Assembly (NCBI RefSeq): GCF_003334335.1
Contig: NZ_QOWQ01000003.1
Origin: Escherichia coli
GTDB lineage: Bacteria > Pseudomonadota > Gammaproteobacteria > Enterobacterales > Enterobacteriaceae
Reading direction: 5' to 3' (one strand)
Length of the DNA stretch: 64,000 nt
In this document: positions 45,421 to 45,789 of the stretch, piece after piece
Layout: each line of letters begins with the position of its first letter
How positions within the stretch are numbered: position 1 is the first letter of the stretch
The notes under the pieces: generated by a model
Databases searched by the model: none
The model's input: the letters and a program-made list of their open reading frames with translations, nothing else
What the model was told of the DNA's origin: nothing
Program-made: the position numbers and the translations under genes

Positions 45421-45789
45421 TGCGTCATCCTCTGTGTTTAGTTTTGCTTAGATGGCCATCATACTTACCCACATGATTTTTGAGGTCAACATTAAATCTG
45501 TAAAACACAGATAATAATCTGCGTTTTACAACTCAGATCACAATTACGCAGAAAATGGCTGGGTCTGTTACAGGTTGATGGAAGGCGGGGCGCAAAAAGA
45601 GCAAATTCGAGAGGGATTACCGGCCAAATAGGTCTGAGACTTAAGTTCAGGAGAAGTCATTCAGGTGTGAACGGGACGGCAAGAGATCGGACTGGGACTT
45701 AGCCAGGTCATGGCGAGATAATTGAGATGAGTCGTGGGGTCATTGTTGGCTATCCCCTTCATAGCCGAGGCAAAAAGGGGATGAACCAC

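Follow-up and report, generated by a model that had tools for sequence, protein, structure and literature searches.

GlpR, the regulator of glpFK, glpTQ/glpACB and glpD, belongs to the same DeoR/GlpR regulator family as YdjF, which is encoded in the ydj cluster of Escherichia coli. The glp operators, studied by Larson and co-workers, reportedly consist of tandem palindromic units about 20-21 bp apart. These operators occur together with CRP sites at the catabolic promoter, and auxiliary operators inside glpD act at a distance. In the deo system, the palindromic operators O1, O2 and OE lie hundreds of base pairs apart and act together, an oligomeric repressor looping the DNA between them. The same deo region has a CRP-dependent promoter, and the O1 operator overlaps the promoter. 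The gal system is controlled by GalR from one operator located upstream (OE, at about -60) and one located inside the first gene (OI), and the loop between them encloses the promoter. The GalR loop is about 113 bp and involves HU, and a CRP site lies nearby. FucR is a DeoR-family activator of the fuc regulon, and its effector is a phosphorylated intermediate.

The ydj cluster was studied here within a window of 64 kb, the term window meaning the whole stretch of E. coli DNA that was analysed. The cluster begins with ydjL and is preceded by yeaC.

44344-45420, minus strand: ydjL, the first gene of the ydjLKJIHG unit (from the list of open reading frames and RefSeq)
45790-46062, minus strand: yeaC, the upstream neighbour of ydjL, with a 369-bp gap between the two genes

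Beyond ydjL the cluster continues with ydjK-J-I-H-G, ydjF and ydjE, all on the minus strand. The stretch of the window from 45380 to 45830 is 100% identical to that of E. coli strain FORC 064. The segment of about 9.1 kb (about 36675-45791) that has ydjE at one end and the ydjL upstream region at the other behaves as a presence/absence island. Of 5,426 complete E. coli genomes, about 1,100 lack it and have pncA next to yeaC; the operator block was found in 4,327 genomes of the complete E. coli set. The best in vitro substrate of the ydj cluster is L-glycero-L-galacto-octuluronate, for which no natural source is known (PMC9602453). The ydjL promoter is off in culture and on in the mouse gut, where it was among the two most consistently activated reporters, and its regulation was described as uncharacterised (PMC6561318).

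By analogy, the arrangement found at ydj would work like the multi-operator systems of GlpR and DeoR. It shares with the GlpR system tandem units, a probable role of CRP at the catabolic promoter and a candidate auxiliary unit within a structural gene, but it differs in the sequence of the unit, in having two strong units that lie wholly upstream of the -35 element, and in the copy of the site that the regulator gene ydjF itself carries. With deo it has in common the regulator family, distant palindromic units and a CRP-dependent promoter, whereas no ydj unit overlaps the -10 element. As in gal, neither operator covers the core promoter and a loop would enclose it; however, GalR belongs to the LacI family, its consensus does not fit, and the proposed ydj span is 399-420 bp. 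YdjF resembles FucR as a DeoR-family regulator of a sugar pathway with a comparable NCBIfam score, and units beside the -35 element would suit an activator. The FucR model is among the better NCBIfam matches of YdjF, but the score of 138 bits against a cut-off of 259 means that YdjF is no FucR orthologue. Judged by its sequence, the ydj operator is a member of no characterised operator family.

The initial annotation had pointed to two palindromes with ATCTG/CAGAT arms upstream of ydjL as a candidate operator, and both strings, ATCTGTAAAACACAGAT (45496-45512) and ATCTGCGTTTTACAACTCAGAT (45517-45538), are present exactly as described, separated by 4 bp. Their place in the 369-bp gap, at 76-118 bp upstream of the ATG of ydjL, agrees with the location that had been given. 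The presence of four ATCTG/CAGAT pentamers in 43 bp is unique to this site in the 64-kb window, and when the window was resampled 300 times with a first-order Markov model, at least four pentamers were reached just twice. A repeat finder returned a 14-nt inverted repeat at the same place, TGTAAAACACAGAT (45499-45512) and ATCTGCGTTTTACA (45517-45530), of which 13/14 positions are complementary across a 4-nt gap. Elsewhere in the window, an inverted repeat of equal quality occurs at a single locus, in a terminator-like hairpin at 48833. The quality of the inverted repeat, its rarity in the window and the Markov resampling together place the repeat cluster beyond chance. The best reading of the 14-nt inverted repeat is as two units of 17 bp with a spacing of 21 bp.

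45496..45512, minus strand: O_P, the proximal 17-bp operator unit, ATCTGTGTTTTACAGAT on the ydjL sense strand, with 6-nt palindromic arms
45517..45533, minus strand: O_D, the distal 17-bp operator unit, AGTTGTAAAACGCAGAT on the sense strand, containing one arm of the 13/14 inverted repeat

The unit centres fall at 45504 (O_P) and 45525 (O_D), which corresponds to about -50 and -71. O_P spans about -58 to -42 and its end is 6 nt from the -35 hexamer, while O_D is located at about -79 to -63, with bases 45517-45530 representing the second arm of the 14-nt inverted repeat. The consensus of the two units is about ATCTGTG-AAA-CACAGAT. O_P is kept from Escherichia to Serratia, and the Serratia version is a perfect 7-3-7 palindrome, ATCTGTGTTTCACAGAT. 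O_D is kept in Escherichia, Citrobacter, Klebsiella, Raoultella, Yokenella and Budvicia but is degenerate in Serratia, Enterobacillus and Symbiopectobacterium.

Of the two palindromes that had been proposed, the first therefore stands as a conserved unit, whereas the second probably does not hold in its original form. Its outer arm CAGAT (45534-45538) is polymorphic, position 45534 being C or T both among E. coli strains and among genera, and the reading as ATCTG-N12-CAGAT was dropped for this reason. The second palindrome is better read as a 17-bp unit at 45517-45533 together with a separate invariant TGTGATC box. A weak likeness to the distal block upstream of ydjF (TCTG..TGTG.AAA) leaves a stretched second unit of 22 bp as a less likely alternative. 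A third upstream unit at 45538-45554 was not adopted since its TTCTGCG is conserved only within Escherichia. The form of the half-site has three candidates, namely 17-bp units, 14-nt arms or WTCTGYG heptamers. In the linker, base 45516 is G in most strains, including a K-12-like one, and A in the window. Divergence within E. coli is too low to be informative beyond the variation at 45516 and 45534.

The surroundings of the two units were compared in an alignment of ydjL upstream regions from 23 Enterobacterales, which included the genera Escherichia, Citrobacter, Klebsiella, Raoultella, Yokenella, Intestinirhabdus, Budvicia, Symbiopectobacterium, Enterobacillus and Serratia (alignment A1). In A1, the stretch conserved between genera has a sharp edge at TATTTGTGATCT (about 45547) and continues to the ATG. 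The conserved order on the sense strand is a TGTGA-C box, the distal repeat, the proximal repeat, 6 nt, the -35 element, 17 nt and the -10 element.

45536..45545, minus strand: box A, AATTGTGATC on the sense strand; TGTGA-C is invariant (45542..45536, A1 columns T59-C65)
45484..45489, minus strand: predicted ydjL -35 element TTGACC; TTGA is invariant and the following C nearly so in the 23 Enterobacterales
45461..45466, minus strand: predicted ydjL -10 element AAGTAT, 17 nt from the -35 element; columns A135, A136, T138, A139 and T140 are nearly invariant

The -10 element matches the consensus at only 3/6 positions and was missed by a consensus scan for that reason; it reads AATTAT in Serratia and Enterobacillus. 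These elements would form a weak sigma-70 promoter, from which transcription is predicted to start at about 45453-45454. The sole ydjL start that is known to be used experimentally lies inside yeaC, about 477 nt upstream; its position of about 45897 was derived from the primer that Adams et al. used for their fusion. Rho-dependent termination within ydjL was found in the same study.

Box A is probably a left half-site for CRP that overlaps O_D by 10 bp, and a further YdjF heptamer is an alternative candidate for the same bases. The CRP 22-mer candidate at 45524-45545 matches 7/10 core positions. Only its left half, TGTGATCT, matches and is invariant, while the right half (TCACA) is absent and is not conserved in A1. 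The criterion used for a class I CRP site was a 22-bp TGTGA-N6-TCACA sequence centred near -61.5, -71.5, -82.5 or -92.5, and the centre of the candidate (45534.5) falls at about -81 from the predicted start at 45453-45454. In PMC8085971, expression of ydjLKJIHG is reported to be lower in a crp mutant, and CRP-cAMP shifts a fragment containing the ydjL promoter in an electrophoretic mobility shift assay. CRP thus probably shares the ydjL upstream region.

The gene directly downstream of ydjG encodes the most obvious candidate regulator of the cluster, and its own upstream region contains the following elements.

38184..38942, minus strand: ydjF, DeoR/GlpR family (RefSeq)
39016..39032, minus strand: proximal ydjF unit, ATCTGTGATTCAAACAG on the sense strand, ending 6 nt upstream of the ydjF -35 element
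39038..39054, minus strand: second ydjF unit, TTCTGTGAAAACTGTGA, read from the sequence
38981..39009, minus strand: ydjF promoter, TTGAAA (39009..39004), 17 nt, GATAAT (38986..38981)

YdjF contains the Pfam domains HTH_DeoR (E 5e-17) and DeoRC (E 3e-49). It scores under the curated cut-off of every named NCBIfam equivalog, including GlpR, AgaR, FucR, SrlR and DeoR; its best NCBIfam match is the GlpR model, again below the cut-off. The deoxyribose operon repressor is the only sequence match of YdjF in the PDB. YdjF has been counted among the uncharacterised transcription factors of E. coli (PMC4797297). The searched literature, which did not extend to RegPrecise, RegulonDB and EcoCyc, yielded no YdjF binding or expression experiment, no effect of ydjF on ydjL and no YdjF site from ChIP-exo or SELEX.

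The initial annotation had suggested a search for the same motif upstream of ydjF, and this search returned a match at 39016-39032, in the same position relative to the -35 element as at ydjL. The proximal ydjF unit is kept in 22/22 Enterobacterales loci. The heptamers TTCTGTG of the second unit and ATCTGTG of the proximal unit have starts 22 bp apart, with TTCTGTG on the upstream side, and the block CCTCTGTTTCTGTG(T/A)AAA upstream of ydjF is conserved in Enterobacterales (22 loci). The layout of a unit, 6 nt and a -35 element is identical at ydjL and ydjF. The promoter that follows it at ydjF, TTGAAA-17-GATAAT, was classified as a "constitutive promoter" in genomic SELEX with the RpoD holoenzyme (PMC3946193). 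The motif is assigned to YdjF mainly on account of this copy at the ydjF promoter, since local regulators commonly autoregulate. Upstream of ydjE, no match to the motif was found by PWM scan or half-site search.

The motif is also found outside the Enterobacterales. A scan of 100,044 species genomes for YdjL identified orthologues with 76-99% identity in Enterobacterales, Lachnospiraceae, Eubacteriaceae, Ruminococcus, Anaerococcus, Enterococcus, Atopobiaceae and Megamonas. The gene order ydjL-K-J-I-H-G-F is preserved, with minor variations, in Enterobacterales, Firmicutes, Atopobiaceae and Megamonas, and all complete loci end with an orthologue of YdjF (40-98% identity). When 12 non-enterobacterial ydjL upstream regions alone were given to a Gibbs sampler, the motif TyTGTTTyAMAGAT was obtained. 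A PWM was built from 33 non-enterobacterial sites and scanned over both strands of the E. coli window (128,000 positions). Rank 1 in the window was 45496-45509, TGTGTTTTACAGAT, with 18.0 bits; rank 3 was 39019-39032 in the 136-bp ydjG-ydjF gap, with 14.7 bits; and rank 7 was 45097, inside ydjL, with 12.5 bits. Two of the top three matches thus fall in the promoter regions of the cluster, which make up 0.8% of the window, and chance is very unlikely to account for this (about 2e-4). The PWM scores by themselves are unexceptional, as a score of 17.6 bits was also reached at 27105 in an unrelated open reading frame; this match lies inside a 447-aa ORF and was taken as chance.

In the reciprocal test, a 17-mer PWM made from Enterobacterales only was scanned over the entire 11-21-kb loci of 13 distant clusters. 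The top match lay at most 350 bp upstream of ydjL in 8/13 of these loci, against a chance expectation of about 2-3% for each locus. The units of the Gram-positive loci are arranged as direct arrays that repeat every 20-21 bp, as in L024 and L037. Spacing by whole helical turns, as in operators of the DeoR/GlpR family, is common to the ydjL units (21 bp), the ydjF heptamers (22 bp) and these arrays. Four Firmicutes (L025, L027, L036 and L038) show the geometry seen in E. coli, with 7 nt, TTGAnn, 17 nt and a -10 element after the last clear unit. The operator motif tracks the cluster across phyla rather than the host.

The match at rank 7 corresponds to a third unit of the ydjL region, which is located within the coding sequence.

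45097..45113, minus strand: O_I, candidate auxiliary operator, TTCTGTGTTGTACAGAA, in ydjL codons 103-108, identified as a PWM match

O_I is identical to O_P at 14/17 positions and was also recovered as a half-site match with 2 mismatches. For 25 ydjL sequences of enterobacterial origin, synonymous variation was measured in windows of 8 codons. The minor-codon fraction averages 0.32 over the gene and falls to 0.05 in the 8-codon window that begins at codon 102, the lowest of 351 ydjL windows; this 8-codon window is also the lowest in synonymous variation among 2651 windows from eight cluster genes. The DNA of O_I is not conserved in the Gram-positive orthologues, though the protein is similar there, which indicates that the constraint acts at the nucleotide level and is specific to Enterobacterales. 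The centre of O_I lies 399 bp downstream of the centre of O_P and 420 bp downstream of that of O_D. With 10.5 bp to a turn, these distances amount to 38.0 and 40.0 turns, and they differ by 1-2 bp in other genera because of small indels.

The geometry of the sites, their conservation, their linkage to the cluster and the synonymous constraint at O_I are the observations from which YdjF can be inferred as the binder, together with repression, looping and an inducer. It appears moderately probable that YdjF has a multi-site operator of the DeoR/GlpR type, the promoter-proximal part of which is formed by the repeats upstream of ydjL. This operator would probably be repressive and would involve both looping and competition with CRP. 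The earlier proposal, which took the site for a protein operator of the ydjL unit and YdjF for its likely regulator, gains comparative support from the co-occurrence of motif and cluster across phyla, the copy at ydjF and the DeoR-type architecture of YdjF. The two elements upstream of ydjL remain part of the operator set as it was first reported, but the set was drawn too narrowly, as it also takes in O_I (45097-45113) and the two units upstream of ydjF.

Units that lie upstream of the -35 element are in a position more typical of activators, so repression from them requires looping, spreading or anti-activation. According to the proposed mechanism, a YdjF oligomer bound to O_P and O_D in the absence of inducer would bridge to O_I (about +350), leaving the promoter inside the loop, a mode of action known from DeoR, GlpR and GalR. 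By covering the overlapping CRP half-site, YdjF would also keep CRP from activating the ydjL promoter, and binding to the corresponding sites upstream of ydjF would let it repress the strong promoter of its own gene. An intermediate of the pathway, probably the phosphorylated product of the YdjH kinase, would release YdjF, after which CRP-cAMP would activate the ydjL promoter. Such a model fits the silence of the promoter in culture and its activation in the gut (PMC6561318). It also fits the basal expression of ydjLKJIHG on ordinary carbon sources, which is CRP dependent with no known inducer present (PMC8085971).

The same sites (about -50 and -71) could serve YdjF as an inducer-dependent activator that recruits RNA polymerase, possibly with CRP, although this is rather unlikely. 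At ydjL, at ydjF and in the four Firmicutes, the unit ends 6-7 nt upstream of the -35 element, which is the position of a typical activator, the ydjL -10 element is poor (3/6 matches), and FucR, an activator, provides one of the better NCBIfam models for YdjF. However, characterised members of the DeoR/GlpR family are mostly repressors, and a constrained O_I, 399 bp downstream, fits a repression loop better than activation. On the side of an activator, the main text of PMC3946193, on promoters recognised by RpoD alone, lists ydjF and does not include ydjL. However, the geometry seen at ydjL also precedes the strong TTGAAA-17-GATAAT promoter of ydjF, which RNA polymerase binds alone in vitro (PMC3946193) and which needs no activator. 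The CRP-dependent basal expression of ydjLKJIHG without a known inducer (PMC8085971) likewise speaks against the activator reading.

It is less likely still, and on the whole improbable, that the repeats are bound not by YdjF but by a host factor such as CRP or another global regulator and that their conservation reflects catabolite control. The TGTGA half-site of CRP resembles the CTGTGA/TGTGAT cores of the repeats, and the invariant TGTGATCT box equals the left half of the CRP consensus. The mobility shift with CRP-cAMP and the lower expression in the crp mutant (PMC8085971) could be explained in this way, as could the presence of ydjF among the targets of CRP in genomic SELEX (PMC3105977). 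Nevertheless, the unit motif is found upstream of ydjL in Firmicutes and Atopobiaceae, where it follows the cluster and not the host, and a motif that persists in Gram-positive bacteria is not a CRP site. The best CRP-like 22-mers reach only 7/10 core positions, a score that 141 sites in the window equal or exceed, and the right half TCACA is lacking. CRP was rejected as the binder of the palindromes on account of this weak match and of the Gram-positive loci and was kept for box A only, where it probably acts in addition to the YdjF units and not in their place.

Other host regulators fare no better. Consensus strings for Fur, LexA, TyrR, PurR, Cra, GalR and DeoR have between 46 and 4070 equally good background sites. 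The best matches to these consensuses are at background level in the window for Fur (12/19), LexA (11/20), TyrR (9/12) and PurR (9/16) and equally for Cra (8/16), GalR (9/16) and E. coli DeoR (9/16). For TGTTAGAATTCTAACA, the E. coli DeoR consensus, the best match at the ydj site is 9/16, and 888 background sites are equally good. A TyrR box was rejected since TGTAAA...TTTACA is present with a spacing of 20 nt instead of 6, and a LexA box was rejected since the CTG...CAG spacings are 7 and 12 nt compared with the 10 nt required.

The inverted repeat could also function as an RNA hairpin in a long leader that starts inside yeaC, acting as a stabiliser, a processing site, a terminator or an insulator against read-through into ydjL. 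The sense RNA is predicted to fold (-19.3 kcal/mol, z = -4.3) into a hairpin whose stem has about 19 pairs and whose loop has 4 nt, a terminator scan includes the hairpin upstream of ydjL, the transcript from about 45897 crosses it, and Rho-dependent termination takes place in ydjL. Despite this stable fold, a hairpin or terminator was rejected as the main function and is very improbable, given that covariation is nil (83.9% of cells pair compared with 84.3% in column shuffles, with one double change in 23 species), that the stem is AU-rich (4 G-C of 15 pairs) and is followed by AUUUAAUG without a U tract, the tail after the stem reading ATTTAATG, that no Term-seq 3' end was detected for ydjL (Adams et al.), that Rfam has no match for the hairpin, that it lies upstream of the conserved ydjL promoter, that the Gram-positive units are direct repeats unable to form the E. 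coli hairpin, and that the proximal ydjF unit and O_I have no inverted partner. The lack of covariation, U tract, Term-seq end and Rfam family and the unpaired units elsewhere argue that the constraint acts on double-stranded DNA.

For the multi-site YdjF operator, a more specific scenario can be put forward tentatively, as one that is plausible but somewhat short of probable. The palindromes and O_I may be the two anchors of a repression loop of about 400 bp, and the regulator, the operator grammar and the layout of a unit, 6-7 nt and a -35 element may have moved as a cassette between Firmicutes and Enterobacterales, with the latter adding O_I and the CRP half-site.

The ydj cluster is a long-standing orphan. 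With a defined operator and a named candidate regulator, the induction of ydj in the gut becomes a bench experiment, in which the release of YdjF-DNA complexes can be screened with candidate sugar-acid phosphates. Rational engineering of the ydjL promoter as a biosensor also becomes possible. O_I represents a clean case of regulatory DNA constraining synonymous sites, and the conserved motif indicates that regulators can move between phyla along with their operators. If the YdjF model is true, a YdjF release assay could find the natural substrate of the ydj cluster, since the ydjL promoter has been validated as a sensor of the healthy gut.

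The candidate auxiliary operator inside ydjL, a 17-bp palindromic unit under synonymous constraint, coincides with the eight codons of least synonymous variation in the entire ydj cluster, and it is placed as such in the model of ydjL regulation. This unit and other features in the window are as follows.

45097-45113: candidate auxiliary operator TTCTGTGTTGTACAGAA, inside ydjL
45908..45903, minus strand: -10-like CATAAT, by the start at ~45897 and inside yeaC
45628-45643 and 45686-45701: imperfect direct repeat ATAGGTCTGAGACTTA / ATCGGACTGGGACTTA, 58 bp apart
38952-38971: CCCTGTATCTTTTTACATCA, in the ydjF 5' UTR
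36675-45791, ~9.1 kb: presence/absence island running from ydjE through ydjL and including the whole 369-bp ydjL upstream region, flanked by pncA and yeaC
48833-48869: near-perfect hairpin TGTTGTGTGCCGGGTGCAATGCATCCGGCACACAACA of 37 nt, in the yeaD-yeaE gap, where the two genes converge

A transcription start on the minus strand at ~45897, inside yeaC, follows from the fusion primer of Adams et al. It gives a leader of ~477 nt, and this leader runs across the operator block, which contains the two predicted 17-bp YdjF units (45496-45512 and 45517-45533) upstream of ydjL. The same study described a Rho-dependent termination region within ydjL. The direct repeat falls in a portion of the intergenic region that is without conservation between genera. 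The 4-nt linker separating the two units reads AATA in the window strain, with A at position 45516, and AATG, with G at this position, in all five of the other E. coli strains sampled, one of which is K-12-like. The segment 45455-45550 is present at 99% identity or more in only 164 of 4,327 genomes.

A position weight matrix built from sites upstream of ydjL in non-enterobacterial loci (the Gram-positive PWM) found its second-best match in the window in TTTATTTCACAGAA (27105-27118; 17.6 bits). This sequence lies inside an ORF of 447 aa (26459-27802, plus strand) and is taken as a chance match. The sequence in the ydjF 5' UTR appears in PMC3542263 among LexA ChIP-chip targets, where it is given near ydjF as a degenerate site of the "unconventional" type. 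The hairpin between yeaD and yeaE is probably a bidirectional terminator.

Among 5,426 complete genomes of E. coli, ~1,100 lack the ydj island, and its prevalence is also reported to vary with phylogroup (PMC9602453). YdjL of E. coli is 76-85% identical to YdjL of Gram-positive gut anaerobes, and the gene order and the DeoR gene are common to the E. coli cluster and the ydj loci compared (L023-L042, from Firmicutes, Atopobiaceae, and Megamonas). Because of this identity and shared organization, the sequence comparison points to a recent transfer of the entire ydj cluster between phyla.
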